Below are positions 17,939 through 46,636 of a DNA stretch of 64,000 nt, piece after piece. The position numbers were made by a program, and so were the translations under genes. How positions within the stretch are numbered: the stretch's first letter is position 1; the number at the start of each line of letters is the position of its first letter. Below the pieces are notes generated by a model. It was not told the DNA's origin. It saw nothing but the letters and a program-made list of their open reading frames with translations, and made no database searches. This DNA comes from Acidobacteriota bacterium (GTDB lineage: Bacteria; Acidobacteriota; Vicinamibacteria; Fen-336): positions 40,150 through 104,149 of the forward strand of contig JAQBHI010000049.1 in the NCBI GenBank assembly GCA_032127875.1, read 5' to 3'.

Positions 17939-18409
17939 CTACTCGGCAATCTGCTGGGCCAAATAGTTCTCGATGCCGATCTCCTCGATCTGGTGGAGCT
18001 GCGCTTCGAGCCAGTCGATGTGCTCCTCCTCGCTCTTCAGGATTTCTTCGAGGAGCGAACGGCTGCCGTTGTCGCTCCTTTCGGCACTGAGGGCGATGCC
18101 GGCGTTGAGTCGCTTCACGGCGTCGTATTCGAGCTGCAGGTCGAACTCATGCTGCTCCTTGACGTCCTTGCCGACCTGCACCTTCATGTACTTCTGCATG
18201 TTCGGCTGACCATCGAAGTAGAGGATGCGGTCGATCACGAGTTGAGCGTGCTTCATCTCCCCGAGGGATTCCTTGTAGGTGTACTCGGCCAGACGCTTGT
18301 AGCGCCAGTTCTCTCGCATCCGGGCGTGAATGAAGTACTGGTTGATCGCCGTCAACTCGGCGCACAGCACGTCCCCCAGAACCGCGATGACGTCAGCATT
18401 CCCTTTCAC
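17939..18409 (-). CDS. bfr: Bacterioferritin
   Basis: Near-canonical Bfr sequence (INQYFIHARMRENW ... EMKHAQLVIDRILYFDG ... EEEHIDWLEAQL). GTG start with GGAGG 6 nt upstream. Confidence 0.9.
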   Translation of the reverse strand: MKGNADVIAVLGDVLCAELTAINQYFIHARMRENWRYKRLAEYTYKESLGEMKHAQLVIDRILYFDGQPNMQKYMKVQVGKDVKEQHEFDLQLEYDAVKRLNAGIALSAERSDNGSRSLLEEILKSEEEHIDWLEAQLHQIEEIGIENYLAQQIAE

Positions 18410-18479
18410 GACTCACCTCCGCCGAAAGACCTGGCCAGGATTCTAGTCCGAACGGCGAGGCTTTTTTTCTGGGAGAAGG

Positions 18480-21129: not shown

Positions 21130-23160
<2,031 letters not shown>

Positions 23161-23201
23161 GAGGAGGTCCAAGGTTCAGTCTCCTTCGTCCGAAAAAGGG
23201 G

Positions 23202-23982: not shown

Positions 23983-26145
<2,163 letters not shown>

Positions 26146-26338
26146 GGCAGTCACCTAAACGGCTGATCTACTCTTGAAGGGGACCGGGGCGGATAAGCCG
26201 AGCCGCCCGCCCTCGTCAAGGTCCAGCAGGCCACGCCTCAGCCCTGGCTCCCCTGGCGGAGCGGCGGATTCATTCCGGCGCGTAGCGGTCGGGGGGAGCC
26301 CGAGGGCGCGGGGGGCATGGGTCCGTACCCCCGGGTTC

Positions 26339-32485: not shown

Positions 32486-32923
32486 CTACAAATCAGCCAG
32501 TATTTCTTCGGGGTGGGCGGCGGCGTTGACCTTCGGGTAGGCCTTCTTCACCTTGCCGTCCGGCGCGATCAGATAGCTAATGCGCTTCGCGTGCTGGGCG
32601 GTGGCGTCGTCAGCGGCTCCATACGCCAGCCCAATGGCGCGATTCGCGTCGGATAGCAGCGGGAAGTCGAAGCCGAATTTCTGAGCAAAGACGGCCTGGT
32701 CAGGGACCGTGTCGAAGCTGACGCCCAGCACCTGCACGCCCTTGTCCCCGTACTGCCGAATCCGGTCGCGGAACCCGCAACCTTCGGCCGTTCAACCGGG
32801 CGTGTCGGCCTTCGGATAGAACCAGAGAACGACGCTCCGGCCACGATACTGGGAGAGCCGGATCAGCTTGCCCGTGTGGTCGCGCACCTCGAAATCCGGC
32901 GCCTCGGCTCCGACCTCCAGCAT
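32486..32923 (-). CDS. bcp: Bcp-type peroxiredoxin with in-frame TGA (predicted selenocysteine) at the peroxidatic position
   Basis: ATG at 32921-32923. Translation is MLEVGAEAPDFEVRDHTGKLIRLSQYRGRSVVLWFYPKADTPG-U-TAEGCGFRDRIRQYGDKGVQVLGVSFD..., and it runs in frame into ORF-track entry 32486..32737. The TGA at 32792-32794 replaces the Cys of the conserved PGCT motif. The resolving Cys five residues later is retained. Confidence 0.75.
32764..32782 (-). other. Candidate bacterial SECIS hairpin downstream of the UGA
   Basis: mRNA GGUUGCGG-GUU-CCGCGACC (8-bp stem with one G-U pair) beginning 10 nt after the UGA. The apical loop carries G and U and lies about 18 nt from the UGA. Confidence 0.45.
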
Positions 32924-32944: not shown

Positions 32945-33544
32945 TTATACGGCGAGGCTGTCGCCGCGGGCCGACCAGCGCAGCGACCATACGCAGGCCA
33001 CGTCGCCCTTGTTCTGGCAGTAACGCTCCTCGGCGCTCACGGACCCGCCGGTGAGACATTCGATGGAGCGGCGGATGTAGCCCTTGGCGGAGAGGCAGTA
33101 GATCGGATCGTTTTCGGGGTAATCGCTGAAGGAGATCTCGCCGACGCTGAAGTTGATGCGGCGATAATCGGCGCGGCCGAAGTTGTGGAAGCGCCGGTGC
33201 TCCTCGGCCATGCGCGCGAGAAAACCGTGCACGTTGATGAGCGCCGCGTGCTCTCCAAGCCAGAACGTACGCTGCTGCGCAGAAGCCTCACCCAGACGCT
33301 CGTACAGGAGTTCGTCACCCTTGCCAAACTGCGTGGCGATGGCCCGGTCCAGGCGGATCAGCGTGCCGAACGGGTACCAGGTGTTCCTGTCGACGCCTGC
33401 GAGTCGGCCACGATCCTGGGCGGGAAGCGCCTCGAGGACGCGGGCGATCGCGTCGGACCCGTGCTCCCGTTTCAAGTACTCGAAACGGGACACGACGATC
33501 TGTCCGTGCAGGTGGGGCCCCCTGAGATCCGATGGCTCGCTCAT
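32945..33544 (-). CDS. Hypothetical protein with C-terminal Cys-containing region (possibly DUF2378-like)
   Basis: 199 aa. Coding-like composition. Its stop is 22 nt before the selenoprotein start on the same strand. Confidence 0.5.
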   Translation of the reverse strand: MSEPSDLRGPHLHGQIVVSRFEYLKREHGSDAIARVLEALPAQDRGRLAGVDRNTWYPFGTLIRLDRAIATQFGKGDELLYERLGEASAQQRTFWLGEHAALINVHGFLARMAEEHRRFHNFGRADYRRINFSVGEISFSDYPENDPIYCLSAKGYIRRSIECLTGGSVSAEERYCQNKGDVACVWSLRWSARGDSLAV

Positions 33545-33701
33545 GCCGGGGCTGAAGAGCAGGATTCGTGCCCGCTCGCTATCAACGACTTACGCATGGC
33601 TCGTCGGACGGGACGGCCGACAAGCTGACATGGCCGGCTGGAAGTCGGACAGGCCCGCGGGCCTTGAGAGTTGCCCCGCCGATCCTTTACACTTAAACGA
33701 T

Positions 33702-34475
33702 ATGAGCCTGGCGGGGCGTAGGGCACTGGTGACGGGAGGCGGGCGCGGCATCGGGCGGGCCGTGGCTCGAGAACTCGCGCGCGCCGGCGTTTCGGTCGCG
33801 GTCGCGTCTCGGACGCGGGCCGAGCTCGACGCCGTCGTCGCGGAACTGCACGCCGCGAATCTCCGCGCGGCAAGCTTCACGGCCGACGTCTCCAGGGCCG
33901 AGGATGTGGCCAGCCTGGTGCGCGCCGCCGACGAGGCGCTGGGTGGTCTAGACATCCTCGTGAATGCGGCGGGCACAGCACCTTCGGCGCCGCTCGTGAA
34001 GACCTCCGACGAGCAGTGGCGGGCGGCCATCGAGACCAACCTCAGCGGCGCCTTCTATGCGATGCGCGCCGCGCTGCCTGGGATGCTGGCGGCGAGCTGG
34101 GGGCGTGTCGTGAACGTGGCCTCGATCGCGGGCAAGACTGGCTACCCCTACATCTCGGCCTACGCCGCGAGCAAACATGGCCTGCTCGGGCTCACGAAAT
34201 GCGCGGCCCTCGAAGTCGCGGAGAAGGGCGTCACGGTCAACGCCGTCTGCCCCGGCTATGTCGATACGCCCATGACGGACCTGTCGATAGCCCGCATCGT
34301 CGAGAAGACCTGCCGGCCGGCCGCCGAGATTCGGCGTCGCCTCGAGGACGCAAGCCCGCAAAAGCGGCTCTACACCGCGGAGGAGGTGGCGGCGCTGGTC
34401 GTGTTCCTGTGCGGCGAGGCCGCAAGCGGCATCAACGGCCAGGCGCTTAGCGTCGATGGTGGGACGCTGGTTTGA
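33702..34475 (+). CDS. SDR-family oxidoreductase (FabG-like 3-oxoacyl reductase)
   Basis: TGGGRGIGRAVA, NAAG, catalytic YAASKHGLLG. The ORF-track entry 33183..34475 is a spurious 5' extension. Confidence 0.85.
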   Translation: MSLAGRRALVTGGGRGIGRAVARELARAGVSVAVASRTRAELDAVVAELHAANLRAASFTADVSRAEDVASLVRAADEALGGLDILVNAAGTAPSAPLVKTSDEQWRAAIETNLSGAFYAMRAALPGMLAASWGRVVNVASIAGKTGYPYISAYAASKHGLLGLTKCAALEVAEKGVTVNAVCPGYVDTPMTDLSIARIVEKTCRPAAEIRRRLEDASPQKRLYTAEEVAALVVFLCGEAASGINGQALSVDGGTLV

Positions 34476-34864
34476 AGCTGCAGCCCGTGAATCCTGCGAG
34501 CCTGGCGCTGGCCCGCGGCTACAGCCACGGCATGCGGGGCTCCGGCGAGGTGCTCTTCGTTGCCGGCCAGATCGGCTGGGATGCACAGGCTCGGCTGGTG
34601 TCCGACGACTTCGCGCTCCAGTTCGGCCAGGCGCTCGACAACGTCCTGGCGGTCGTGCGAGAGGCGGGCGGCAGCCCTCAATCGATCGGCCGCTTGACGA
34701 TCTACGTCGTGGACAAGCGCGAGTACCTGGCGCGGGCCAAGGACGTCGGGGCGGCCTATCGGACCCGCATGGGGCGCCACTTCCCCGCGATGGCCCTCGT
34801 CGAAGTGAAGTCGCTCCTCGAGGCGGGGGCGAAGCTGGAAATCGAGGCGACGGCGCTGCTGTGA
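34472..34864 (+). CDS. RidA/YjgF-family protein
   Basis: 130 aa. TTG start overlapping the SDR stop (TTGA). Typical RidA fold signatures (VFVAGQIG ... PAMALVEV). Confidence 0.7.
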   Translation: MKLQPVNPASLALARGYSHGMRGSGEVLFVAGQIGWDAQARLVSDDFALQFGQALDNVLAVVREAGGSPQSIGRLTIYVVDKREYLARAKDVGAAYRTRMGRHFPAMALVEVKSLLEAGAKLEIEATALL

Positions 34865-35304
34865 AGAACACTGACTCGCGCCTGGCACTTTCGGTCTGGG
34901 TCCGGTTGCTCAAGGCGCACGGCCTGCTGTTGCGCGAGGTGCGGCGCCGCGTGCCCGACGCGCTCACGCTGCCGCAGTTCGACGTGCTTGCGCAGCTTTA
35001 TCGCAGCGACGAGGGCATGACGCCGGGCCGGCTCACCCGGGAGCTGCTGGTGACCGCGGGCAACGTCACGGGCATCGTCGAGCGGCTCGCGAGCCTCGGG
35101 CTGGTCGAGCGCCACCCGGTGCCCGAGGATCGGCGGGCTGTGCGGATCCGGCTTACGGCCAAAGGCTCTAAGCTGATGCGGCGGGCCATTCCGCGCCATC
35201 GGCGCGAGGTCGGCACGCTGTTCGCCCCGTTGGCCGAGGGCGAGCTGGCCCACCTGCGCGACCTGCTGGGTACGCTGAACCAGCGACTGGAGGAGCGCGC
35301 ATGA
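34861..35304 (+). CDS. MarR-family transcriptional regulator
   Basis: GTG start overlapping the RidA stop. Winged-HTH MarR core (LTLPQFDVLAQLYRSDEGMTPGRLTRELLVTAGNVTGIVERLASLGLVER). Confidence 0.8.
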   Translation: MKNTDSRLALSVWVRLLKAHGLLLREVRRRVPDALTLPQFDVLAQLYRSDEGMTPGRLTRELLVTAGNVTGIVERLASLGLVERHPVPEDRRAVRIRLTAKGSKLMRRAIPRHRREVGTLFAPLAEGELAHLRDLLGTLNQRLEERA

Positions 35305-36101
35305 CGACGAAGGGCTTTCGTTGCCAGGAGGCGGGCGGCGTCGCGACGCTCACCCTCGACCGTCCGGACACGCTCAACTCGCTCACCTTCGAAATGTACC
35401 GCGAGCTGACCGGAGTCTTTCGCGCGCTGCCCGCCCGTCGGGAGATCCGGGCGGTGGTGCTCACCGGAGCCGGGCGCGCCTTCTGCACCGGCGGCGACGT
35501 GAAAGAGATCATCGGCGAACTGCTTCAGCACGACCACGCCCAGCTGCTGGCGTTCACGCGGCTCACGTGCGAGCTGGTGCGCGCGATGCGCGAAGCGCCA
35601 CAGCCGATCGTCGCCTGCCTCAACGGTACGGTGGCGGGCGCCGGGGCCGCCTTGGCACTCGCCGCCGACTTCCGCGTCGCGGCGGACACGGCGAAGATCG
35701 CGTTCCTGTTCGTGAAGGTGGGGTTGGCCGGCGCGGACATGGGCGCTGCCTGCCTGTTGCCACGAGTGGTGGGCCTGGGCCGCGCCACCCAGCTGCTCAT
35801 GACCGGCGACTTCGTCGACGCGACCGAAGCGGAGCGCATCGGCCTCTATCACCGCGTAGTGCCCAAAGACGGGCTCGACGCTGCGACCCGGTCACTCGTG
35901 GCGCGCCTGGTGCGCGCCCCTCGCGAGGCCATCGCCGCCACCAAGGCCGCGCTCAACCACGAACTCACGCTCGCGATCGGCACAGCACTCGACCACGAGG
36001 CCGTGGTCCAGGCCGAGCTGATGACGCGTCCCGATTTCCGCGAAGGCTTCGCGGCCTTCATGGAGAAGCGACCGCCCCGCTTCGAAGGAGCCCCCGAGTG
36101 A
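35301..36101 (+). CDS. Enoyl-CoA hydratase/isomerase (crotonase family)
   Basis: Crotonase fold motifs (AVVLTGAGRAFCTGGDVKE ... ACLNGTVAGAGAALALAADFRVA). ATGA overlap with MarR. Confidence 0.85.
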   Translation: MTTKGFRCQEAGGVATLTLDRPDTLNSLTFEMYRELTGVFRALPARREIRAVVLTGAGRAFCTGGDVKEIIGELLQHDHAQLLAFTRLTCELVRAMREAPQPIVACLNGTVAGAGAALALAADFRVAADTAKIAFLFVKVGLAGADMGAACLLPRVVGLGRATQLLMTGDFVDATEAERIGLYHRVVPKDGLDAATRSLVARLVRAPREAIAATKAALNHELTLAIGTALDHEAVVQAELMTRPDFREGFAAFMEKRPPRFEGAPE

Positions 36102-37228
36102 GCGACGATCCGTTCCTCGAAAGGAAGCACGCCCTTCTCGGCGAGCGCATCCGCGCCTTCGGCGACAAGTGGCTGCGCAGCTCGGCACAGGACGAGTCGG
36201 ACCCCGCCGGCCGGACGCGCCGGATCGTGACGGCGATGGCGGAAGCATCGTTCCTGCGCTACGCGGTGCCGCCCCCGCACGGGGCCATGGACCTGCGCTC
36301 GCTGGTGGTCGTGCGCGAGAACCTGGCGTACTTCTCGTCGCTCGCCGACACGGGCTTCGTCATGCAGGGCCTGGGTTCGTACCCGATCGCCCGCGTCGGC
36401 ACCGAAATCCAGCGCAACACCTGGCTGCCGCCGATCGCCGGCGGCCACGTGCTCGCCGCGTTTGCGGTCACCGAGCCCGAGGCCGGCTCGGACCTGGGCG
36501 GGATTCGCACGCAGGCGGATCGCGACGGCGCGCTGTGGCGCCTCACGGGCGTCAAGAGCTACATTTCGAACGCCGGCATCGCGGGCGTCTACAGCGTACT
36601 CGCCCGCACTGGAGAGGGCTCCTCCCATTCCGGGCTCTCGATGTTCCTCGTCGATGCCGAGGCGCCGGGCCTGTCGGTGAAGATGCTGGAAGCGATGGCC
36701 CCGCATCCGCTCGGGGAACTGCGCTTCAGCAACACGCCTGCCCTGCTGCTGGGTGAGCTAGGCGAAGGCTTCGCGCTCGCAACCGCGACGCTCGAGCAGT
36801 TTCGACCTACCGTGGGCGCCGCGGCCTGCGGCCTCGCCGGTCGCGCCTTCGACGAAGCGCTGCGCCACGCCCAGGCGCGACGGCAGTTCGGCCGCAGCCT
36901 CGCTGACTTCCAGGCCACGAAGATGGCCCTCGCTGAGATGCACGTCGAGATCGAGGGGGCGCGGCTGCTCGTCCACAGGGCGGCCTGGCGGAAGGACACC
37001 GGCGCCGAGTCGATCGCCCGCGAGGGCGCCGTGGCGAAGCTCGCTGCGACCGAGATGGCCCAGCGCGTGGTGGATCGCGCCGTGCAGATCCACGGCGCTC
37101 GGGGCGTGATGCGCGGATCGACCGTGGAGCGGCTGTACCGCGAGGTGCGGGCGCTGCGCATCTACGAGGGCACGAGCGAGATCCAGAAGCTGGTGATCGC
37201 CCGCGAGCTATTGAAGGAGAGCCGATGA
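36098..37228 (+). CDS. Acyl-CoA dehydrogenase
   Basis: ACAD N/M/C domains (AFAVTEPEAGSDLGGIRT ... YEGTSEIQKLVIAREL). GTG start overlapping the crotonase stop. Confidence 0.85.
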   Translation: MSDDPFLERKHALLGERIRAFGDKWLRSSAQDESDPAGRTRRIVTAMAEASFLRYAVPPPHGAMDLRSLVVVRENLAYFSSLADTGFVMQGLGSYPIARVGTEIQRNTWLPPIAGGHVLAAFAVTEPEAGSDLGGIRTQADRDGALWRLTGVKSYISNAGIAGVYSVLARTGEGSSHSGLSMFLVDAEAPGLSVKMLEAMAPHPLGELRFSNTPALLLGELGEGFALATATLEQFRPTVGAAACGLAGRAFDEALRHAQARRQFGRSLADFQATKMALAEMHVEIEGARLLVHRAAWRKDTGAESIAREGAVAKLAATEMAQRVVDRAVQIHGARGVMRGSTVERLYREVRALRIYEGTSEIQKLVIARELLKESR

Positions 37229-37938
37229 GCACGGACGTCGTTCGCGCGGAAGAAATGTCGGCCGAGTACCGGCAGATGATCGTGCAGCTGATGCAAAGCC
37301 AGGCCTATCGCGAGCTGGCGGCCGCCCACATGTTCGGCCACGGGCTGCGCTTCGTCCCGGACAAGTGGCTGCGCTTCATGGTCTGGCACATCCGGGAGGA
37401 AGCCGAGCACTACGAGGCGGTGGCGAAGATGTACGAACAGTTCACCGGCGAGAGCGTCGAGGCGGTGGTGCGCCAGCGCCTCGAGGGCAAGCCGATCCCG
37501 ATGGCCGAGAGCTGGATGGAGCTGGCGATGGCCCAGTTCCTCTACGACCGCGGCGGCTTCTGGCAGCTCAAGGAGTACGAGGAGTGCTCGTTCGTCGCCT
37601 ACCGCGCGGTGATCCAGAAGATCGTCAAGGAGGAAGCGGGCCACCAGAGCCTGGGCGAGAAGATCGTGGTCGAGCAATGCCAGTCGGGCGACTTCGAGGA
37701 GGTGAAGCAGGCGCTCTTCGAGAAGTGGCTCCGGATCGGACTGCTCTCGTTCGGACGACCCGGCACGCCCGGCAACCGCTACGCCATCGAGCAGGGCATC
37801 AAGAAGCGCGATTCGGGCGAGTGCATGAAGGACTTCGTGGCCGACATCCGGCCAGCGGTGAAGGCCGCCGGGCTGCGCTTTCCACGGCCCGCCGCGCTGC
37901 GCGTGGAACTGCCGGCCGACATCGACTGGAGCGCGTGA
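37225..37938 (+). CDS. Ferritin-like diiron-carboxylate protein, PaaA/PaaC (PF05138)-like
   Basis: Two E...ExxH motifs (RELAAAHMF ... IREEAEHY and EYEECS ... KEEAGHQ). 237 aa. ATGA coupling with the ACAD gene. Confidence 0.6.
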   Translation: MSTDVVRAEEMSAEYRQMIVQLMQSQAYRELAAAHMFGHGLRFVPDKWLRFMVWHIREEAEHYEAVAKMYEQFTGESVEAVVRQRLEGKPIPMAESWMELAMAQFLYDRGGFWQLKEYEECSFVAYRAVIQKIVKEEAGHQSLGEKIVVEQCQSGDFEEVKQALFEKWLRIGLLSFGRPGTPGNRYAIEQGIKKRDSGECMKDFVADIRPAVKAAGLRFPRPAALRVELPADIDWSA

Positions 37939-37939
37939 G

Positions 37940-38389
37940 ATGGGACGCATCCTGGACCTGTGCGCCGAGATCGCGGCCGAGGCCGAAGAGGGGGAAGACG
38001 GCCTGGTGATCTCCCCCGACGCCTGGGACCGTTTCCGGCAGGACTGGAACGACGAGGAAATCGAGGACGCGATGGCGCTCGTCAAGGACAGCCTGCTGCA
38101 GGGCGAGCTGGCCGAGGCGGCCGACAACCTTTCAGCCCGCCTCGTCGAGGTGCTCGGCCACTATGGAACCGCCCCGGCCTTCCAGCAGGCGGTGGCCGGC
38201 GAGGCGCGCATCAGCGTCGAGACGATCGGCCAGCTGGCGCGGCGCGTCAACCGCCTGGAGGAGGTCCTCGAGCTGTTCCGCGACGGCACGCCGCCCGACC
38301 GAGCCGGCTTCGATGGTCTGCGCCGCCGCCTGGTCGATCAAGGCATCGAAGCGGAGATGGTTGGCGACGACGAGGACGCCCAAGATTGA
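37940..38389 (+). CDS. Acidic hypothetical protein
   Basis: 149 aa, Asp/Glu-rich. The ATG is 2 nt after the preceding stop. Confidence 0.5.
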   Translation: MGRILDLCAEIAAEAEEGEDGLVISPDAWDRFRQDWNDEEIEDAMALVKDSLLQGELAEAADNLSARLVEVLGHYGTAPAFQQAVAGEARISVETIGQLARRVNRLEEVLELFRDGTPPDRAGFDGLRRRLVDQGIEAEMVGDDEDAQD

Positions 38390-38396
38390 CGCTTCG

Positions 38397-39797
38397 ATGA
38401 GCGAGGCCGGCCGGACCGCGGCGCTGCTGTTCCAACCGCTCCCGATCGGTCGCGGCGGGCTGCGCCTTCCCAACCGCATCTGGCTGCCGGCCATGGTGAC
38501 GTGGCGCGGCACCGAAGACGGCTTCGTGACGCCCGCAGTGCGCGAGATCTACCTACGCTACGCCCTGGGCGGCGCGGGCATGATCGTGCTCGAGGCCACT
38601 GGTATTCGCGACGTCGCCAGCGGACCCCTGCTGCGGCTCTCCCACGACCGCTACGTTCCAGGCCTGCGGGCGCTGCGCGAGGAGATGCGCGCGGCTTCCA
38701 ACTCGCTGGTGGTCCCGCAGATCATCGACTTTCTCAAGATCGCGAAGCGCAAGCCGACGCGGGAGTACATCGCCGGCATGGTGAGACGCGGGCGCCTCCC
38801 GCCCAGCGCGCTCGCCCAGAGCGATGCCGAGTTCGAGCAGAGCCTCGAGACGCAGCTTCCCGAGCCGCGTGATCGGCGTGACTTCCGTTTCGGCTACCGG
38901 CAAACCATCGAGGACCTGCCACTCTCCGAGATCCGGCAGATTCCGGGCTTCTTCGCGGCGGCCGCGCGGCGCGCCCGCCAGGCGGGCTTCGACGGCGTCG
39001 AACTGCACTTCGCCCACGCCTACACGATGGCGTCCTTTCTCTCCGTCACGAACCAGCGCGGCGACGCCTACGGCGGCAGCTTCGAGAATCGCATGCGCCT
39101 GCCGCTCGAGGTGGTCGCCACGGTGCGCGAAGAGGTCGGCCGTGATTTCCTCCTGGGCTGCCGGTATCTCGGCAGCGAGGACATCCTGGGCGAGGACGGG
39201 CGGATCCACGGCAACACGCTCGCGGATGCTCGGGCGATCGGCGTCGGGCTGAGTCGAGCCGGGCTCGACTTTCTCTCGATCTCACGTGGCGGCAAGTTCG
39301 ACGATGCCAAGCAGCCACCGATCGGCGAGGCCAGCTACCCCTACACGGGCTGGAGCGGTGCTCGGTGCATCCCGCGCGACAAGCAGGATCCGTTCGGCGT
39401 CAACGTGCCGCTGGCGGCGGGGATCCGCGAAGCGGTGCGGGCCGCGGGCTTCGCAGTGCCCGTCGTTGCGGCCGGCAAGATCCACACTTTCGAGCAGGCC
39501 GAGGGCATCTTGCGCGACGGCAGTGCCGACTTGATCGGCATGGCTCGCGCCCTGCTGGCCGACCCCGACCTGCCGCGCAAATGGACGGCCGGCGCCGACG
39601 AGGCCGGCCGCGCCTGCGTGTTCTGCCCATATTGCGAGCACGAAGACCAGCACCATCGCGTCGTGACGTGCACGCTGTGGCCTAAGCCTGCGGGAAACCA
39701 CCGGCTGCGCCTGACGCCAGCCGTGTGGGAGTGGGGGACGCGCTTCGATCGGCATGCCGTCTTCCACCCCGACTCCGCGCGGCTGAAGACGCGGTAG
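38397..39797 (+). CDS. NADH:flavin oxidoreductase (Old Yellow Enzyme family) with C-terminal Cys/His-rich motif
   Basis: OYE TIM-barrel motifs (LPNRIWLPAMVTW ... GFDGVELHFAHAYTMASFLS ... NQRGDAYGGSFENRMR). C-terminal CVFCPYCEHEDQHHRVVTC. The protein ends at 466 aa with no FAD/NADPH domain. Confidence 0.8.
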   Translation: MSEAGRTAALLFQPLPIGRGGLRLPNRIWLPAMVTWRGTEDGFVTPAVREIYLRYALGGAGMIVLEATGIRDVASGPLLRLSHDRYVPGLRALREEMRAASNSLVVPQIIDFLKIAKRKPTREYIAGMVRRGRLPPSALAQSDAEFEQSLETQLPEPRDRRDFRFGYRQTIEDLPLSEIRQIPGFFAAAARRARQAGFDGVELHFAHAYTMASFLSVTNQRGDAYGGSFENRMRLPLEVVATVREEVGRDFLLGCRYLGSEDILGEDGRIHGNTLADARAIGVGLSRAGLDFLSISRGGKFDDAKQPPIGEASYPYTGWSGARCIPRDKQDPFGVNVPLAAGIREAVRAAGFAVPVVAAGKIHTFEQAEGILRDGSADLIGMARALLADPDLPRKWTAGADEAGRACVFCPYCEHEDQHHRVVTCTLWPKPAGNHRLRLTPAVWEWGTRFDRHAVFHPDSARLKTR

Positions 39798-39804
39798 AAT
39801 CGCC

Positions 39805-41917
39805 GCCCCCAACGATGCGGCAGCGAATCGGCGGCTTCGGGACGGTCTTGGTCGCAGGCCTTCTGGGAGTTGTGCTGTTCGCTCCAGGCGGTCGCAAGGA
39901 CGCGCCGGTTCGGAAGCCGCGACTGCCCGAGTTGGACGGGCGCGAGTCACTCCCGCCGCTGCCCGAGATCTCTCCGCGCAACGCCAACTACACGATCGAA
40001 GCACGCCTCGACCCGACGACCCAGACGATCGAAGGCAGCCTGCTGCTCGACTGGCGCAACCTCGGCGACGTCCCCATGGACACGTTCCCCTTCCATCTCT
40101 ACTGGAACGCCTTCCGCAACAACCTCTCGACCTCGGCCAGGGGTGAGGGCGGCCGCGCGGCGCGTTTCAAGGCGGATCGCGACTACGGCTTCAGCCACGT
40201 CAAGCGGGTCGTACTGCTTGGAGAGACCGAGCAGGATCTGACCGAGCGCGTCCGCTACGTCGCGCCCGACGACGCCAACGCCGACGACCGCACCGTTCTC
40301 GGAGTCAAGGCCTTCTCCGCCGTCGCGCCGGGCGCCACGGCCCGCTTCAGGATCGAGTGGACGGCGCGGATCCCATATGGCAGGGGCGGGCGCGCCGGTT
40401 GGGTGCACGACTACTACTTCATCGTGCAGTGGTTCCCGAAGATCGGGGTGCTTCGCAAGGACAAGTGGAACGCGCACCAGTTCCACTCCACGACCGAGTT
40501 CTTCTCGGACTATGGCAATTACGACGTCAAGCTCACGCTGCCACGTGGCTTCGTGGTCGGGGCGACGGGGATCTCGGGCGCGCCAGTGGACAACGCCGAT
40601 GGCACGCAGACCCTGCGCTTCCTGCAGGACGACGTCCACGATTTCGCATGGACCGCGAGCCGGCGTTTTGTCGAGCGGCAGGGACGCTTCGAGGATGCGG
40701 GTTACCCGCCCGTGGAGATCCGCCTGCTGCTGCAACCTGAACACGCGCATCTGGCCGAGCGCTATCTCGAGGCGACCCGGGTCGCGCTTCGCAGCTACGG
40801 TGCGTGGGCCGCTGCCTACCCCTACGGGCACCTCACCGTCGTCGATCCGGCCTGGTTCTCGGCCTCGGGTGGCATGGAGTATCCGACGCTGTTCACCGGC
40901 GGGACTCACGTGCAGGCTCCGATCGAATTGCAGAGCCCGGAGTCAGTGACGGTGCACGAGGCCGGCCATCAATTCTGGTACGGGCTCGTCGGCACCAACG
41001 AGTTCGAGGAGCCCTGGCTCGACGAAGGACTGAACGATTACAGCGAAGCCAAGGCGCTCGAGCTCTTCTACGGCCCGGCGAGCTGGGGCCGGCGCTACTT
41101 CGGCGGCAAGGACGCGCGGGGACGAGCGCGCGGCCTCCCAGTGCTGGCGCCAGGCGTTTTCGTGGGTCGCGGCGAGGCGGGGCTCGCCGATCTGCGCGAG
41201 TTCGGCCGACGCGACCCGATGGCTCGAGCCTCGTGGCAGTTCGACAGCTCGGACGCGTACTACCTCAACGCCTACCGCAAGCCGGCGCTCGTCCACAAGA
41301 CGCTGGAGGCGCTGGTCGGCGACGAGACGATGACGCGCATCCTGCGCACCTGGGCGAGGCGGTACCGCTTCGAGCACCCGACCACGGAGGACTTCATCGC
41401 CACCGTGAACGAAGTCAGCGGCCAGGACTGGCGCTGGTTCTTCGACGAGACGTTCTTCTCGAGCGGGCTGTGCGACTACGCGATCTCCGTCAAGGAGGAG
41501 CCGCGACGCCGCGCCACAGGCTTCAGCGACGGGCCGGCGCCGGCCCGCGCACCGATACCGGCGCCGACGCTTCCCAAGGGCGCGCCTCGGGACGGCGGTG
41601 CCGACAGCGTCGTGACCGTGCGTCGGCTGGGCGAGGTGCGCATGCCAGTCGAGATCGTGGTCGAGTTCGCGGACGGCCGCATCGCGCGCGAGAGCTGGGA
41701 CGGCCGTGATCGCTGGAAGCGCTTCTCTTACGGGGGCGCCCCGAAAATCCGCCGGGCAGTGGTCGACCCCGACCACAAGCTCGCGATCGACGTGAATCCC
41801 GGCAACAACGCCTGGCGCGCGGAGACGGGGCTTGGTCGGCAGGCCGCCTTCAAGTGGTCGGCCCGCTTCTTGTTCTGGCTGCAGAACCTGCTCGAACTGC
41901 ACACGGTCCTCGGATGA
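39805..41917 (+). CDS. M1-family zinc aminopeptidase (gluzincin), N-terminally anchored
   Basis: HEAGHQFWYG ... EPWLDEGLNDY (HEXXH-X18-E). N-terminal TM/signal helix. 704 aa. Confidence 0.8.
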
Positions 41918-42909
41918 GAGCCGCGCTCGTGGCCGGCCTGCAAGCGGCCTGGCGCTGCCGCACGCTCGCAGCCTTGTTGCTCGCCGTCAACCTCGGCGTC
42001 GCGGGCCTGCTGGCCGTGCCTTTCGCGGCCCAGCTCGGGCGCGACCTGCGCGAGAGCGAAGCGGCGGCGCAGATGGCCCGGGGCTTCGACTTTCCCTGGT
42101 GGAGCCACTGGTCGGACCAGCAGCAGGGCTGGACGTCCGCCTTCAAGCCCGACATCTTCGGCGTGGGCTTTGCGTTCCGGAACACCGACCTGCTACTCAA
42201 GGGCGAGTTGCCGGCGCGCTTGTTCGCTCCGCCCCCGGAGGACCCGAGCGCGCCCGTGCCAAAGCCCGAGCTGGATAACGTAGTCCTGGGCCTGGGTGTC
42301 GCCTACCTGTTGCTGCAGGTGTTCTTTGCCGGAGGGATATTGGGGGCACTGCGCGGCCCCCGCGGCGGCTTCACGGTGCGCGGCTTCGCTCACGGCTGCG
42401 GCTTCTACTGCGGCCGCATGCTGCGCCTCTCGCTGCTGGCGCTGCTCGCCGACGCGCTGCTCTTCCGGCTGAGTGTGCCGGTCTCGGGCTGGGTCGCGAG
42501 CCGCGCCGCGGAGTCGGTCTCCGAGACGACGGCACTCGCCTGGTCGTATGGGCGCAGTGCGGCACTCCTGCTCGGCATCCTGCTGATCCACATGCTCGCG
42601 GGCTACGCGCGCGTGATCACGGTGCTCGAAGAGCGCAAGAGCGCCAGCCTCGCGTTCGTGTCCGCGCTCGCATTCTGCCTCGGTCGCCTTCCCGCCGCCC
42701 TCGGACACTATCTCTCGGTCGCCCTGCTCGCGACGGCGATGCTCGCGGCCTGGGCACGTCTGGACGGCGCTTTCGTTGTCACGGGCTGGGGCACACAGGC
42801 GCTCGCTTTCGCGCTCATGCAGGCCTTCGTGCTCGGGCGTATCGGGCTGCGACTGGCTCTCGCCGGCGGCCAGATGCAACTCTACCGGGGCAGCGGACCG
42901 TCGCAATGA
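41914..42909 (+). CDS. Integral membrane protein, hypothetical (translationally coupled to the M1 peptidase)
   Basis: ATGA overlap with the peptidase stop. About 6 TM helices. Confidence 0.55.
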   Translation: MRAALVAGLQAAWRCRTLAALLLAVNLGVAGLLAVPFAAQLGRDLRESEAAAQMARGFDFPWWSHWSDQQQGWTSAFKPDIFGVGFAFRNTDLLLKGELPARLFAPPPEDPSAPVPKPELDNVVLGLGVAYLLLQVFFAGGILGALRGPRGGFTVRGFAHGCGFYCGRMLRLSLLALLADALLFRLSVPVSGWVASRAAESVSETTALAWSYGRSAALLLGILLIHMLAGYARVITVLEERKSASLAFVSALAFCLGRLPAALGHYLSVALLATAMLAAWARLDGAFVVTGWGTQALAFALMQAFVLGRIGLRLALAGGQMQLYRGSGPSQ

Positions 42910-43354
42910 GCGTAGGCGTCGTGCAACGCAGCGCGCAGTTCGCCCTGCTCACCGGCGCCGCTGCTGTGTCTGTCGATCGCGCTGGGGACGCGTGGCCTCG
43001 CCCACCCCGACGAGCGGCTGCATGCCGACGCCTTCCGTTACTTCGGTGTCCACGTCTGGCCGCCCGACCTCGGCTCCGATGCCCTTCACAAGCTCCGATG
43101 CCCTCCACAAGTATGATGCGTTCGGTACGAGCAAGGTCTACGCGCGCGACGTCGCCTAAGTGATCCTGGGACCGCTGGGCCGGAGCCTCGAGGGTCTGCT
43201 CGGCAGCGAGCGCCCGTGGCTCGCCGTTCGTCGCTGCCAGCAGCTCCCGAGCACGCTGCGACGGTGGCACCTGGCGAGCGCGGCGGTGGCCCTGGCGCTC
43301 TTGCGCGTGGAGCTTGCCCTGCCGCGCCTCGCACTGCACTAGAATCCGGCATCC

Positions 43355-43840
43355 ATGCCCATCGATGGACAGGACTTCCGGCAGGCGCTCGGCCAGTTTG
43401 CAACCGGCGTCACGATCGTCACCACGCGCGACGCGGGAGGCTGGCCGATGGGGCTGACCGTCAACTCCTTCTGCTCGGTCAGCCTGGATCCGCCCCTGGT
43501 GCTGGTCTGCATCGACAACCGCTCGGAAACCCACGACGGGTTCGAGGCCTCGGGCGTCTTCGGCATCAGCGTGCTGTCTGAGGCGCAGGAGGGCTGGTCG
43601 CGGCGCTTCGGGGCGCCGGGCAGGGAGAAGTTCGAGTCGGCCGACCTCGCCGTCGGCGAGACCGGCGTGGGGCTCGTACCGGGGGCGCTCGTCCACATCG
43701 AGTGCCGAGTCGGCGCGCGGCTTCCCGGCGGCGACCATACGATCTACGTGGGCGAGGTGCTGAGACTTCAAGTGGCGCCCGGGCGGCCGCTCCTGTATCA
43801 CGCGAGCGGCTACGCCAGGCTGGCAGGTTCCGGGCCTTGA
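43355..43840 (+). CDS. Flavin reductase (NAD(P)H:FMN oxidoreductase, HpaC-like)
   Basis: Flavin_Reduct domain (FATGVTIVTT ... TVNSFCSVSLDPPLVLVCI). Confidence 0.8.
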   Translation: MPIDGQDFRQALGQFATGVTIVTTRDAGGWPMGLTVNSFCSVSLDPPLVLVCIDNRSETHDGFEASGVFGISVLSEAQEGWSRRFGAPGREKFESADLAVGETGVGLVPGALVHIECRVGARLPGGDHTIYVGEVLRLQVAPGRPLLYHASGYARLAGSGP

Positions 43841-45390
43841 GCGAATTTACCTTCCCCGAACGTTTCAACATGGCGTGGTATTTCCTCGACCGCAACGTCG
43901 AGGCGGGGCGAGGCGACAAGACCTGCCTCTACTGGCGCGACGAGGCCTACACGTACGGCGACGTGCAGGCGCACTCGAACCGGGTCGCAAACGCCCTGCG
44001 CTCGCTCGGCGTCGCAATCGAAGACCGCGTGCTGCTGATCCTGCCGGACCGGCCTGAGTTCGCCTTCGCCTGGTTCGGGGCAGCCAAGGCCGGAGCGGTG
44101 ATCGCGATGGTGAACCCGCTGCTGCCCGCCGAGGACTACGCCCACTACTTCGAGTACACGCGGGCCAGGGTCGCGATCGTGGATGCGTCCACCCGGGATC
44201 GCCTGGATCCGATGCGAGAGTCGTTCCGTCACTTGAAGCATCTCGTCGTCGTCGGCGAGTGTGGCCCGCATCTTGGCTTCGACGAGCTGACCGGGCACGC
44301 CTCAGACGCCTTCACGAATGCCGACACCCATCGCGACGATCCCGCCATCTGGCTGTTCACCAGCGGTTCGACCGGCAAGCCCAAGGCCGCGGTCCACCTC
44401 CAGCAGGATCTGCCCTGGAATACCGAGCGCTACGCGAAGCAGGTGCTCGGGATCGGCGAGCATGACCTGACGCTTTCGGTGCCGAAGCTGTTCTTCGGCT
44501 ACGCGACCGGGACCAACCTGCTGTTCCCGTTCGCGGTGGGCGGCGCCACCGCGCTGTTCAGCGAGCGCAGCGAGCCGGCCACGCTGTTCGACGTGATCGA
44601 GCGGTACAAGCCGACGGTGCTGACCTGCGTACCGACGATGATCGGCGGGATGCTGAACCACCCGGGCGGACAAGGGCGCGATCTCTCGTCGCTGCGGCTC
44701 GTGCTCTCCGCCGGCGAGGCCCTGCCTCCCGAACTGCACCGGCGCTGGAAGGAGAGCTTCCGTGTCGAAATCCTGGACGGCATCGGCTCCGCCGAGATGT
44801 TCCACATCTACATCTCGAACTATCCGGGCGAGGTGGTGCCGGGAAGCCTGGGCCGGCTCGTGCCCGGTTACGACGCCCGCCTGGTCGGCCCGGAAGGCGA
44901 TGAGGTGGCCGAGGGCGAGTCGGGCACGTTGTGGATCAAGGGCGAGTCGGCCGCCATCCTGTATTGGCAGGCGCACGAGAAATCCAAGCAGGTGTTGCGC
45001 GGCGACTGGGTCGTCACGGGCGATCTGATGCGACGCGACCCGCAGGGGTACTTCTGGTACGAGGGCCGGTCCGACGACATGCTCAAGGTCGGCGGCATCT
45101 TCGTCTCGCCGCTGGAGGTGGAAAACTGCCTGTTGCAGCACCAGGCGGTAGCGGAATGCGCCGTGATGGGCTATAAAGACGCCGACGGACTCGTGAAACC
45201 CAAGGCCTTCGTGGTGCTCCGGCAGCGGCAGGGCGACGACGCACTCGCTCGTGAGTTGCAGGATTTCGTGAAGGGGCGCCTGGCGCCCTTCAAGTACCCG
45301 CGGGCCGTGGCCTTCGTTCCGTCGCTCCCGAAGAACGACCGTGGGAAGATCGATCGCCGCCGGCTCGAAGTCGAAGCCCCCCTGGCATGA
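43837..45390 (+). CDS. Aryl-CoA ligase, benzoate / 4-hydroxybenzoate-CoA ligase family
   Basis: AMP-binding motifs (LFTSGSTGKPKAAVH, YGATE-like GIGSAEM, TGDLMRRDPQGYFWYEGRSDDMLKVGG, PKNDRGKIDR). The N-terminus aligns with BadA-type ligases. TTG at 43837 (TTGA overlap) or ATG at 43870. Confidence 0.85.
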   Translation: MSEFTFPERFNMAWYFLDRNVEAGRGDKTCLYWRDEAYTYGDVQAHSNRVANALRSLGVAIEDRVLLILPDRPEFAFAWFGAAKAGAVIAMVNPLLPAEDYAHYFEYTRARVAIVDASTRDRLDPMRESFRHLKHLVVVGECGPHLGFDELTGHASDAFTNADTHRDDPAIWLFTSGSTGKPKAAVHLQQDLPWNTERYAKQVLGIGEHDLTLSVPKLFFGYATGTNLLFPFAVGGATALFSERSEPATLFDVIERYKPTVLTCVPTMIGGMLNHPGGQGRDLSSLRLVLSAGEALPPELHRRWKESFRVEILDGIGSAEMFHIYISNYPGEVVPGSLGRLVPGYDARLVGPEGDEVAEGESGTLWIKGESAAILYWQAHEKSKQVLRGDWVVTGDLMRRDPQGYFWYEGRSDDMLKVGGIFVSPLEVENCLLQHQAVAECAVMGYKDADGLVKPKAFVVLRQRQGDDALARELQDFVKGRLAPFKYPRAVAFVPSLPKNDRGKIDRRRLEVEAPLA

Positions 45391-45464
45391 GGTCGCTGCC
45401 CGCCTGACGCTCTAAAGGACCCCTGAAGCACTAACCGAAAGGAGAGAAGGGTCACTTCCCTTCG

Positions 45465-46223
45465 ATGGCCATGGCCGAGAACATCGTGATGTCGGAGATG
45501 ACGTGGACGGAGATCGACGAGGCGCTCAAGGAACGGCCCGTGGGGCTGCTCCCGGTGGGCGCCGTGGAAGCGCACGGCCCGCACCTGCCCGTCTCGGCCG
45601 ACACCGTGATCGCTACCGAGATGGCGCGGCGCGGCGCGGAAAAGCTCAAGGAGCACGGCATCCCGTCGCTGATCCTGCCACCGGTGTTCTACACCGTCGC
45701 CGATTTCGGCGCCTCTTTCGCCGGCACCCTGAGCGTCCAGGCTGACACGGCAACGGCCCTGCTGCGCGACGTCTGCATCGCGGCCTCGAAGCGCTTCCGA
45801 TGCGTGGGCCTTGCCAACATCCACCTCGAGGCGGCGCATGTCGAGTGCGTGAAGAAGGCGCTCGAGGAAGCGAACAAGGCGGGCGCGTCGGCCTGCTACG
45901 CGGATTTGACGCGCAAGCGCTGGGCCGAGCTGATGGGGCCTGTCTTCCAGCTGGGCGATCACGCCGGGGCCTGGGAGACCTCGCTGATGATGGCCGCCGC
46001 GCCGGTGATGGTGCGCGAACGCGCGCGGATCAGCCTGCCACCCCTCGATGGCCTGATGCCCGCCCTCAAGAAGGGCGCCAAGACGTTCGTCGAGGCGGGC
46101 GGCGAGGATGCCTACTTCGGCAACCCGATCGCCGCCTCCGCCGAAGACGGCGAGGCCAACCTCGAGTCGCTGGGCGAGGTGCTGTGCGTTTCGGTCATGG
46201 AGCACCTCGGGAGCAAGGCATAG
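45465..46223 (+). CDS. Creatininase-family amidohydrolase
   Basis: Creatininase fold signatures (LLPVGAVEAHGPHLP ... GDHAGAWETSLMMA). Confidence 0.75.
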   Translation: MAMAENIVMSEMTWTEIDEALKERPVGLLPVGAVEAHGPHLPVSADTVIATEMARRGAEKLKEHGIPSLILPPVFYTVADFGASFAGTLSVQADTATALLRDVCIAASKRFRCVGLANIHLEAAHVECVKKALEEANKAGASACYADLTRKRWAELMGPVFQLGDHAGAWETSLMMAAAPVMVRERARISLPPLDGLMPALKKGAKTFVEAGGEDAYFGNPIAASAEDGEANLESLGEVLCVSVMEHLGSKA

Positions 46224-46636
46224 CTTTCACCACGCAGATCCTGGTTCGCTTCTGCGATCTCGACCCGGCTGGGATCGCCTACTATCCGAACCTCGTCAAC
46301 TTCCTGCACGTGGCCTTCGAGGACTTCTTCGCGGGCCACGTCGGGCGGCCCTATCCAGACGTCTTCCGCGAGGGCCTCGGCTTCCCCACCGTCAAGGTCG
46401 AGATGGAGTACCTGACGCCCATCCACTACGGCGACCGCGTCGATGTGCGCGTGAGTGTCGAAAAAGTCGGCCGTTCGTCGGTCCGCTTCCGGTACCAGGG
46501 CAGCGTCCTGGGCAAGCCGGTATTTCGCGCTCGGAACACCGCGGTCGTGGTGGACATGAAGACGTTCAAGCCGATGACCGTTCCGGACGACTTGCGGAGC
46601 AAGTTCCTGGAAGCGGCCGATCCTGCGCCAGCCTAG
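46184..46636 (+). CDS. 4HBT/YbgC-type hotdog acyl-CoA thioesterase (start uncertain)
   Basis: ILVRFCDLDPAGIAYYPNLVNFLHVAFEDFF is the typical 4HBT N-terminus. No ATG is present. The candidate GTG at 46184 overlaps the creatininase 3' end. Confidence 0.6.
   Translation: MRFGHGAPREQGIAFTTQILVRFCDLDPAGIAYYPNLVNFLHVAFEDFFAGHVGRPYPDVFREGLGFPTVKVEMEYLTPIHYGDRVDVRVSVEKVGRSSVRFRYQGSVLGKPVFRARNTAVVVDMKTFKPMTVPDDLRSKFLEAADPAPA

Follow-up and report, generated by a model that had tools for sequence, protein, structure and literature searches.

Gene content and extent of the locus

The subject of this work is a gene cluster in a 64-kb window (the whole stretch of the Acidobacteriota contig JAQBHI010000049.1 that was analyzed; about 68% G+C), the nearest relatives of which are all Vicinamibacteria (Acidobacteriota) metagenome-assembled genomes (MAGs). 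The cluster encodes a compact PaaA-like diiron-carboxylate protein, hereafter called mini-PaaA or the diiron protein, among genes for the metabolism of CoA thioesters. An earlier, sequence-only reading of this DNA had pointed to six tightly coupled genes, from a MarR-family regulator to an Old Yellow Enzyme (OYE). All six were confirmed on the + strand, with 4-bp overlaps at 35301, 36098, and 37225 and a 1-nt gap at 37938–37940 between the window's open reading frames (ORFs), and their families were recovered with Pfam and NCBIfam models. However, the unit is larger than had been proposed and spans about 33702 to 46636. The co-directional, overlap-coupled run begins two genes before MarR, with a short-chain dehydrogenase/reductase (SDR) gene whose stop overlaps the start of a RidA gene, the stop of which in turn overlaps the MarR start, and the genes of a flavin reductase, a ligase, a creatininase-family protein, and a thioesterase had been missed downstream. 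The features are as follows.

32945–33544, − strand: V4R-like protein, 199 aa (PF02830 at E = 4e-4, below the cutoff; no NCBIfam match)
33702–34475, + strand: SDR (ATG start; PF00106 and PF13561, about 208 bits)
34472–34864, + strand: RidA/YjgF-family protein (PF01042, 76 bits)
34861–35304, + strand: MarR-family regulator (GTG start; PF12802, 57.9 bits against a threshold of 27; PF01047, 46.3 bits against 24.6)
35301–36101, + strand: crotonase of the PRK08258 type, an enoyl-CoA hydratase (ECH) relative (PF00378, 192 bits; NF006107, 340 bits against a cutoff of 330)
36098–37228, + strand: acyl-CoA dehydrogenase (ACAD; GTG start; PF00441, PF02770, and PF02771)
37225–37938, + strand: PaaA-like diiron-carboxylate protein (mini-PaaA), 237 aa (PF05138, 51.5 bits against 28.5)
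37940–38389, + strand: acidic, predicted all-helical protein, 149 aa (pI 4.14; 36 of the 149 residues are Asp or Glu)
38397–39797, + strand: stand-alone OYE, 466 aa (PF00724, 140 bits; the true start is the ATG at 38397)
43355–43840, + strand: HpaC/StyB-type flavin reductase (PF01613, 146 bits)
43870–45390, + strand: aryl-CoA ligase of the benzoate-CoA ligase family (TIGR02262, 532.9 bits against a cutoff of 375.25)
45465–46223, + strand: creatininase-family metal amidohydrolase (PF02633, 161 bits)
about 46184–46636, + strand: hotdog-fold (4HBT/YbgC-type) acyl-CoA thioesterase (start codon uncertain; TIGR00051, 47 bits, below the cutoff)

Between the OYE and flavin reductase genes lie those of an M1-family peptidase (730 aa) and of a 351-aa membrane protein without a family match (39725–42909, + strand). 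The order OYE, M1 peptidase and membrane protein, flavin reductase, ligase is found in the window and in five loci (including L001, L004, L013, and L016; L-numbers denote the loci retrieved in the scans described below), and the flavin reductase gene adjoins the ligase gene in L001, L002, L004, L013, and L016. The peptidase and the membrane protein were considered as members of the unit and rejected, because both are missing from L028, L007, and L011. As the OYE, flavin reductase, and ligase genes are contiguous in the metagenome contig L028, the segment 39725–42909 appears to have been inserted in the operon, and we count both the flavin reductase and the ligase as part of the unit. In this contig, the OYE is read in frame into the flavin reductase to give a 635-aa product (4460–6367) with both PF00724 and PF01613, which is directly followed by the ligase gene. 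It could be a true fusion, or a stop codon may have been lost in this one metagenome contig; the reductase part still opens with its own MPIAADDF start.

No inverted repeat (MarR operator) was found upstream of the SDR gene in 33530–33710, and promoter and terminator scans of the locus gave results at chance level. The V4R-like protein, which has four cysteines, is transcribed divergently from the operon, and its homologues (49–75% identity) hold the same divergent position in eight Vicinamibacteria loci and in L100. From its sequence, it may be a small-molecule sensor or an accessory, and its membership in the unit is uncertain.

Conservation in Vicinamibacteria and in other lineages

A genome scan with one genome per species retrieved 18 loci, 16 of them from Vicinamibacteria. 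The sequence-only reading had made its case dependent on a conserved gene order, and the order SDR, RidA, MarR, ECH, ACAD, diiron protein, acidic protein, OYE was indeed kept in every Vicinamibacteria locus with enough flank, further examples of the conserved block coming from metagenomes. MarR gave no match at the thresholds used in L007 and L011, while RidA was present in all the Vicinamibacteria loci, as well as in the diiron-type loci L061, L084, L086, and L099. Within the block, the diiron protein is the best conserved (78–96% identity across the Vicinamibacteria loci) and the acidic protein the least (53–87%). Thioesterase homologues adjoin the OYE gene in L007, L011, L018, and L100.

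A metagenome scan for relatives of the diiron protein, performed with a four-sequence alignment, yielded 80 loci. Among relatives sharing 58–70% identity with the window protein, the commonest order was ligase, creatininase-family gene, diiron gene. A 66%-identical relative (L029) is the last gene of an overlapping run composed of ACAD, OYE, aryl-CoA ligase, and diiron genes, with a thioesterase gene nearby, and a 59%-identical one comes after RidA, ligase, and creatininase-family genes. The order is SDR, RidA, ECH, ACAD, OYE, ligase, creatininase, diiron in L084 and L086, and ligase, creatininase, then SDR, RidA, ECH, ACAD, a 2Fe-2S ferredoxin relative, a 141-aa ORF, diiron, and OYE in L099. 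The diiron gene is thus accompanied by the ligase, creatininase, OYE, and SDR-RidA-ECH-ACAD partners in shuffled orders (L029, L060, L061, L084, L086, and L099), and we regard the recurrence of the same partners in different arrangements as good evidence of shared function. Fifteen loci had 8 kb or more of flank; of these, 11 carried one or more pathway genes and 10 a creatininase-family gene. Where the upstream sequence reached 2.6 kb or more (22 loci), a ligase was encoded in 14. In other lineages (L034–L092 and the contig of P0242), a creatininase-family gene is the commonest immediate neighbour on the upstream side of the diiron gene, and it held this place in 14 of the 44 loci in which 900 bp or more of upstream sequence was available. 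The connection with CoA thioesters claimed earlier is strong, a benzoate-CoA-ligase-family gene accompanying the diiron gene in several lineages.

The creatininase-family protein itself scored below all NCBIfam cutoffs (MftE, 106 against 172 bits; creatininase, 83.5 against 235; IolN, 45 against 245), and it resembles MftE and IolN, a diketo-inositol hydrolase that cleaves a ring, only weakly. In L099, the segment between the ACAD and diiron genes (9256–9989) codes for a 103-aa thioredoxin-like 2Fe-2S ferredoxin relative and a 141-aa putative membrane protein; the former might serve this lineage as a dedicated electron donor. A second ACAD-family gene is located directly downstream of the diiron gene in L084 (10807–12009), and similarly in L065, L081, L083, L086, L088, L089, and L092. 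This second ACAD of the non-Vicinamibacteria loci is only 26–30% identical to the window ACAD.

The diiron protein

The diiron protein contains two ExxH motifs (E59-x2-H62 and E137-x2-H140), and its residues E30, E59, H62, D108, E137, and H140 align with E42, E72, H75, D126, E155, and H158 of Escherichia coli PaaA, which are the iron ligands of that enzyme (PMC4498308). An AlphaFold2 model built with 47 family members (pLDDT 97.3) was compared with solved structures using Foldseek. This analysis placed PaaA at the top (TMq 0.83), followed by SSO1313 (4mud), PaaC, and BoxB, while aldehyde deformylating oxygenase was a weaker match (TMq 0.63–0.66). The description of the protein as PaaA-like, made earlier on the basis of the two motifs, is thus upheld by the complete set of six ligands and by the predicted fold. 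In terms of sequence, the protein passes the broad Pfam family PF05138 only, and scores 38.9 bits with the PaaA equivalog model TIGR02156, the cutoff of which is 280. Members of the family are currently annotated as phenylacetyl-CoA epoxidase catalytic subunit or as PaaI, and this is a mis-annotation, since the membership tests do not support the epoxidase name.

The family forms a distinct group of proteins of about 230–250 residues (1093 clusters at 90% identity and 314 at 50%, E ≤ 0.001), derived mostly from soil and groundwater metagenomes. Metal ligands have been lost in 23 of 47 representatives of the wider family, as in PaaC, and about half keep all six; the window protein retains the complete set, as does every relative that is at least about 38% identical to it. 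Rubrerythrin, ferritin, and MiaE-like identities were considered and rejected, because PF05138 was the only family matched and the best hits were PaaA, SSO1313, PaaC, and BoxB. In agreement with this, neither a rubrerythrin-like nor a tRNA-modifying enzyme, the two classes named by the sequence-only reading as fatal to its proposal, was matched. That reading had also noted the lack of the other Paa components, and PaaB, PaaC, PaaD, and PaaE, as well as ferredoxin and ferredoxin reductase, are indeed absent from the window's genes. Taking the ligands and the model together, we infer that mini-PaaA is a predicted O2-activating aryl-CoA oxygenase of the catalytic type.

Correspondence with ACMR-type clusters

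Plasmid-borne homologues of the window crotonase sit in a recurrent cluster (Ralstonia, Pseudochrobactrum) that consists of a protein of about 780 aa annotated as "bifunctional salicylyl-CoA 5-hydroxylase/oxidoreductase," an SDR, MarR, enoyl-CoA hydratase, ACAD, 2-aminobenzoate-CoA ligase, thioesterase, and RidA. The Ralstonia protein of about 780 aa, an FAD aromatic monooxygenase fused to an OYE, scores 1448 bits on NF006101, the model of ACMR (2-aminobenzoyl-CoA monooxygenase/reductase). The same gene block accompanies the fusion enzyme in Gemmatirosa and Streptomyces, and the cluster was found in four other phyla. The products of the window operon have counterparts throughout this block. 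The crotonase, the type of which is the signature hydratase/hydrolase of ACMR clusters, is 48–52% identical to their hydratases, and scores 340 bits on NF006107 (PRK08258), where the Ralstonia cluster member reaches 502 bits. Identities with the ACMR-type clusters amount to 45–49% for SDR (Ralstonia and Pseudochrobactrum), 45–47% for ACAD, 43–44% for RidA, and 36–40% for both MarR and the ligase, and the thioesterase was matched by tblastn to that of the Ralstonia cluster (28% identity, E = 9e-15).

What these loci do not share is the oxygenase. The FAD-monooxygenase half (N-terminal 400 residues of the Ralstonia and Pseudochrobactrum proteins) had no tblastn match at E ≤ 1e-3 in the 64-kb window or in the 18 loci, and the Ralstonia half had none in the 80 metagenome loci. 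The cluster frame is therefore shared without the FAD-monooxygenase half, and the diiron protein occupies the place of the missing oxygenase. Furthermore, RidA is shared by the two types of cluster and points to a ring with an amino substituent, 2-aminobenzoyl-CoA being the first candidate, and the substrate of the pathway is probably anthranilate (2-aminobenzoate). These findings led us to the explanation that we consider somewhat better than evenly likely, namely that the locus represents a non-orthologous replacement, in which a mini-PaaA diiron oxygenase would stand for the flavin-monooxygenase half of ACMR in an aerobic "hybrid" aryl-CoA catabolic cluster.

A different assignment of the oxygenase, in which the ACAD would be a two-component monooxygenase of the ACAD fold with the flavin reductase as its partner, was also considered and appears unlikely. 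The ACAD is 45–47% identical to those of ACMR-type clusters, which hold their own oxygenase and no flavin reductase, and L028 fuses the flavin reductase to the OYE, not to the ACAD.

The OYE, the flavin reductase, and the acidic protein

The OYE preserves the HxxH-Y substrate site (HFAHAY), as in true ene-reductases, and has a basic insertion of roughly 47–55 aa that is conserved among its orthologues. Its C-terminal CxxCxxC-x11-C motif, invariant in 14 orthologues, aligns with the 4Fe-4S cysteines of FadH (1ps9), histamine dehydrogenase (6de6), and 6l6j. The protein ends about 40 residues past the cysteine motif, has no Pfam match besides PF00724, and is without FAD and NAD(P)H domains. Models of FadH, BaiCD, and mycofactocin-type Fe-S OYEs gave 174–178 bits, compared with 116 bits for the ACMR model NF006101 (cutoff 1078), and the identity with the OYE half of NF006101 fusions is 29–35%. 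By its FMN TIM barrel and predicted 4Fe-4S motif, the protein belongs to the FadH-class Fe-S Old Yellow Enzymes. Most simply, it would be the counterpart of the fusion's OYE half, that is, the predicted ene-reductase of the oxygenase/reductase pair. Thus, of the suggestion that the OYE acts as the reductase of the diiron protein, the presence of the enzyme stands, but it need not be only that. Electrons from NAD(P)H would probably come in at the flavin reductase and go from there to the predicted Fe-S cluster of the OYE.

The acidic character of the 149-aa protein, recognized earlier, agrees with its pI of 4.14, but its supposed role as an effector or coupling protein is not supported. Its 327 homologues include none with a Pfam domain, a search of PDB sequences gave no match, and no relative of known function was detectable. 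The model is all-helical (pLDDT 86.5), and a comparison with effector/coupling proteins of the MmoB/DmpM type revealed no sequence or fold similarity. The protein is missing wherever the diiron protein falls below about 76% identity, and both it and the flavin reductase occur in Vicinamibacteria-type loci only. In addition, the OYE of L029 (324–1832) has no basic insertion, only three cysteines in the Fe-S region, and an extra C-terminal segment of about 100 aa. As the acidic protein is confined to the Vicinamibacteria type and the OYE of L029, from a lineage without the acidic protein, lacks the insertion, we regard the acidic protein as a predicted lineage-specific (Vicinamibacteria) accessory and not a core coupling partner. 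The basic insertion of the OYE is its possible docking site.

Proposed pathway

In the pathway that we propose, the ligase (43870–45390) would form an aryl-CoA, most likely 2-aminobenzoyl-CoA. The diiron protein would then activate O2 and hydroxylate or epoxidise the ring, giving a non-aromatic or easily tautomerised intermediate, and the stand-alone OYE would reduce a C=C bond of this intermediate to yield an alicyclic oxo-enamine thioester. Electrons from NAD(P)H would enter through the HpaC-type flavin reductase and pass to the 4Fe-4S cluster of the OYE. In FadH, the electron wire runs NADPH-FAD-[4Fe-4S]-FMN, and the flavin reductase and OYE would rebuild a FadH-like wire from separate parts, a pairing that the L028 fusion supports. 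The Fe-S cluster of the OYE would also be the sole encoded Fe-S one-electron carrier for the diiron site in the Vicinamibacteria cluster, while the L099 ferredoxin suggests that other lineages reduce this site differently. RidA (enamine/imine deaminase) would take off the amino group, and the PRK08258-type crotonase, the SDR, and the ACAD would open the ring and degrade the product by beta-oxidation, the SDR acting in the lower pathway as a dehydrogenase, either of hydroxyacyl-CoA or of the oxo-ring. The thioesterase would serve as a safety valve, MarR would repress the operon until an aryl-CoA or aryl acid binds, and the acidic helical protein would probably dock on the OYE insertion.

A more far-reaching version of this scheme can be considered, in which mini-PaaA, the FMN/[4Fe-4S] OYE, and the flavin reductase (with the acidic docking protein in Vicinamibacteria) would constitute a novel multicomponent aryl-CoA oxygenase/ene-reductase, one and the same OYE hydrogenating the ring at its FMN and feeding electrons to the diiron site. 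We regard it as a tentative idea and, on present indications, a rather doubtful one.

Several observations weigh against the replacement of the ACMR oxygenase half by mini-PaaA as set out above. First, the OYE is, judging from its model scores, an analogue and not an orthologue of the ACMR reductase half. Second, OYEs outside Vicinamibacteria have only three of the cysteines and no flavin reductase nearby, so that not every lineage can reduce the diiron site through such an Fe-S relay. Third, the creatininase-family gene goes with the diiron type and is not annotated in the two ACMR-type clusters compared, which means that the two routes may differ beyond the oxygenase. Fourth, the general benzoate-CoA ligase model TIGR02262 is the only one that the window ligase passes, and it scores 533 bits there, while the "2-aminobenzoate-CoA ligase" of Ralstonia scores 362 bits, just below the cutoff; together with the identity of only 36–40%, this makes benzoate, salicylate, or another aryl acid possible as the substrate. 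Finally, the diiron family also occurs without the pathway partners: in L015, from another lineage, the gene of a 64%-identical relative follows that of a NUDIX hydrolase and overlaps its stop, one is found beside MetK and TspO, others precede a PlsC-like acyltransferase (L044, L056), and a 56%-identical relative heads an aryl-polyene-like cluster (L020, 8001–16729; L021). The last case suggests that members of the family may also tailor aryl thioesters in biosynthesis.

Two of these loci deserve a brief description. The L020/L021 cluster encodes a phosphopantetheinyl transferase (PPTase), an AMP-ligase, a FabA/ApeI-like dehydratase, MMPL, LolA, an acyl carrier protein (ACP), a lipid A-type acyltransferase, and a ketosynthase, and an FAD halogenase/monooxygenase-like gene is located upstream of it. 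The L015 contig (CAMAWH010000008.1) is labelled as a Klebsiella pneumoniae MAG, has 58–70% G+C and myxobacteria-like or other non-enterobacterial genes, and is probably mis-binned.

Alternative explanations

Of the other explanations, a Box/Paa-like epoxidase route survives best. According to it, the diiron protein would epoxidise an unsubstituted aryl-CoA such as benzoyl-CoA, the OYE and flavin reductase would be a reductase only (analogues of BoxA or PaaE), and the ring would be opened hydrolytically by the crotonase and/or the creatininase-family hydrolase. The nearest folds do belong to two known epoxidases, PaaA and BoxB, and BoxA is also a flavin/[4Fe-4S] protein (PMC4498308). Moreover, the ligase is strong in the benzoate-CoA-ligase family, the second-best models of the crotonase are those of PaaG isomerase (188 bits) and the alternative oxepin-CoA hydrolase (163 bits), and the creatininase-family gene is linked to the diiron type only. 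Nevertheless, we consider this route unlikely, because no BoxD- or PaaZ-type aldehyde dehydrogenase is present among the large ORFs of the window, the OYE keeps the HxxH-Y site of true ene-reductases, and the whole lower-pathway set matches ACMR-type clusters, including RidA, the obvious use of which is on an amino or imino intermediate. The phenylacetyl-CoA epoxidase logic seen in the sequence-only reading thus gives way to a gene set that points to ACMR-like hydroxylation and ene-reduction, and not to the sequence of epoxidation, isomerisation, and aldehyde dehydrogenation.

It is improbable that the diiron protein acts at a later step, hydroxylating or desaturating an alicyclic or aliphatic acyl-CoA (or acyl-ACP), with the OYE and flavin reductase forming a separate FadH-like dienoyl-CoA reductase. 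Such a role would suit the resemblance of the OYE to FadH-class enzymes and the relatives that adjoin PlsC/GPAT-type acyltransferases or sit in the ACP-based aryl-polyene-like cluster without an OYE, and the weaker fold matches, acyl desaturases and aldehyde deformylating oxygenase, are likewise diiron enzymes of the ferritin-like kind. However, the cluster would then have no ring-activating oxygenase though it otherwise copies ACMR-type clusters, the closest folds are those of aryl-CoA and arylacetyl-CoA epoxidases, with aldehyde deformylating oxygenase clearly weaker, and the linkage to the aryl-type CoA ligase is tight.

Still less probable is a biosynthetic module, one that would tailor an aryl thioester on its way to a pigment or a secondary metabolite. 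The idea draws on the 56%-identical relative at the head of the aryl-polyene-like cluster, but the window cluster is without ACP, ketosynthase, and export genes and has a full beta-oxidation-type set, MarR, and a thioesterase, as in catabolic ACMR-type clusters. A non-enzymatic, ferritin-like role of the diiron protein (iron storage, peroxide protection, or structural) is hardly credible: the 23 ligand-less, PaaC-like representatives of the wider family would be in line with it, but here and in relatives to about 38% identity the six ligands are kept, the gene is the best conserved in the operon and translationally coupled to ACAD, no rubrerythrin or ferritin was matched, and a true ferritin is encoded elsewhere in the window (17939–18412).

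Other features of the window

Two full-length genes of H+-translocating pyrophosphatases lie in near-tandem on the − strand (21130–23172 and 23983–26154), with a VTT/DedA-domain gene between them. A stand-alone NRPS-like protein of 842 aa (adenylation, carrier, and thioesterase domains) is encoded amid glycosyltransferase genes (3984–6512, − strand); its gene is the sole other AMP-binding gene of the window, and the product is 29% identical to the aryl-CoA ligase. An 83-aa ORF (32486–32737, − strand) matches just the C-terminal half of the AhpC/TSA peroxiredoxin profile and, judging from this partial match, may be a truncated or frameshifted Bcp-type gene.

Significance and comparison with known systems

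The sequence-only reading had raised the prospect of an undescribed pathway of CoA-thioester oxygenation. This was borne out in part, in that the frame is the known ACMR/abm-type hybrid pathway, whereas the oxygenase and its electron supply are new. No account of a PaaA-like protein within an ACMR-type cluster, or from Vicinamibacteria, turned up in the searchable literature. For aerobic "hybrid" pathways, in which aromatic rings are oxidised while bound as CoA thioesters, three forms are known, which rely on PaaABCE, BoxAB, and the flavoenzyme ACMR, respectively. The present locus suggests a fourth one, with the task of ACMR divided between a compact diiron oxygenase and a separate ene-reductase, and mini-PaaA probably marks a third kind of aryl-CoA oxygenase. 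If this is true, it would be a third, independently evolved family of aryl-CoA ring oxygenases beside PaaABCE and BoxAB, and if the OYE does feed the diiron centre, a new electron-delivery design for diiron monooxygenases. A corrected annotation of the family would alter the inferred turnover of aromatic acids, tryptophan, and anthranilate in Vicinamibacteria and other uncultured soil bacteria. Moreover, the recurrent partners (creatininase-family hydrolase, Fe-S OYE, flavin reductase, and RidA) offer handles on the lower 2-aminobenzoyl-CoA pathway, which is described in reviews only as beta-oxidation-like (PMC4539516).

Compared with PaaABC(D)E, the window protein shares the fold of the catalytic subunit (TMq 0.83 to PaaA), the six iron ligands, and the substrate class, a CoA thioester made by a dedicated ligase. 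However, it has 237 aa against about 310 aa of PaaA, with about 20% identity, and PaaB, PaaC, PaaD, PaaE, and a PaaZ-type aldehyde dehydrogenase are all absent from the locus. BoxAB is likewise a diiron oxygenase system acting on aryl-CoA, and BoxB is among the fold matches of the model, but BoxB is much longer (about 475 aa), its sequence similarity is marginal (E = 0.21), and no homologue of BoxA, BoxC, or BoxD was found here. The putative reductase of the window consists of an OYE TIM barrel and an HpaC-type flavin reductase, whereas BoxA carries a flavin and [4Fe-4S] clusters and binds only transiently (PMC4498308).

The closest protein in compactness is SSO1313 of Sulfolobus solfataricus (PDB 4mud, 235 aa), which is the best PDB sequence match (E = 1e-5; TMt about 0.80), though the identity is just 15–16%. 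It is a structural-genomics entry, a [quoted passage not shown] with no function known. As regards the OYE, FadH, the histamine and trimethylamine dehydrogenases, and BaiCD have the same arrangement of an FMN TIM barrel followed by the 4Fe-4S-type cysteine motif. FadH-class enzymes differ in their FAD and NAD(P)H domains, which are absent from the window OYE and are probably replaced by the separate flavin reductase, fused in L028.

The greatest likeness is that to ACMR (abmA; NF006101) and the abm-type cluster of Azoarcus evansii, the gene order of which is known here through reviews. The chemistry of ACMR is reviewed in PMC4539516 and PMC3534580; 5-hydroxyanthraniloyl-CoA is formed when NADH is limiting (PMC3534580). 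In place of the FAD monooxygenase domain of ACMR, a ferritin-like diiron protein is encoded in the window, the OYE is a separate, FadH/BaiCD-like protein with an Fe-S motif and its own flavin reductase, and the acidic helical protein and the creatininase-family hydrolase are extra. What both have in common are the aryl-CoA ligase, PRK08258-type crotonase, ACAD, SDR, RidA, MarR, and hotdog thioesterase (28–52% identity), an OYE-type protein that is here a predicted ene-reductase and, as it would seem from these genes, the logic of oxygenating an aryl-CoA, reducing it at once to an alicyclic thioester, and degrading the product by beta-oxidation.

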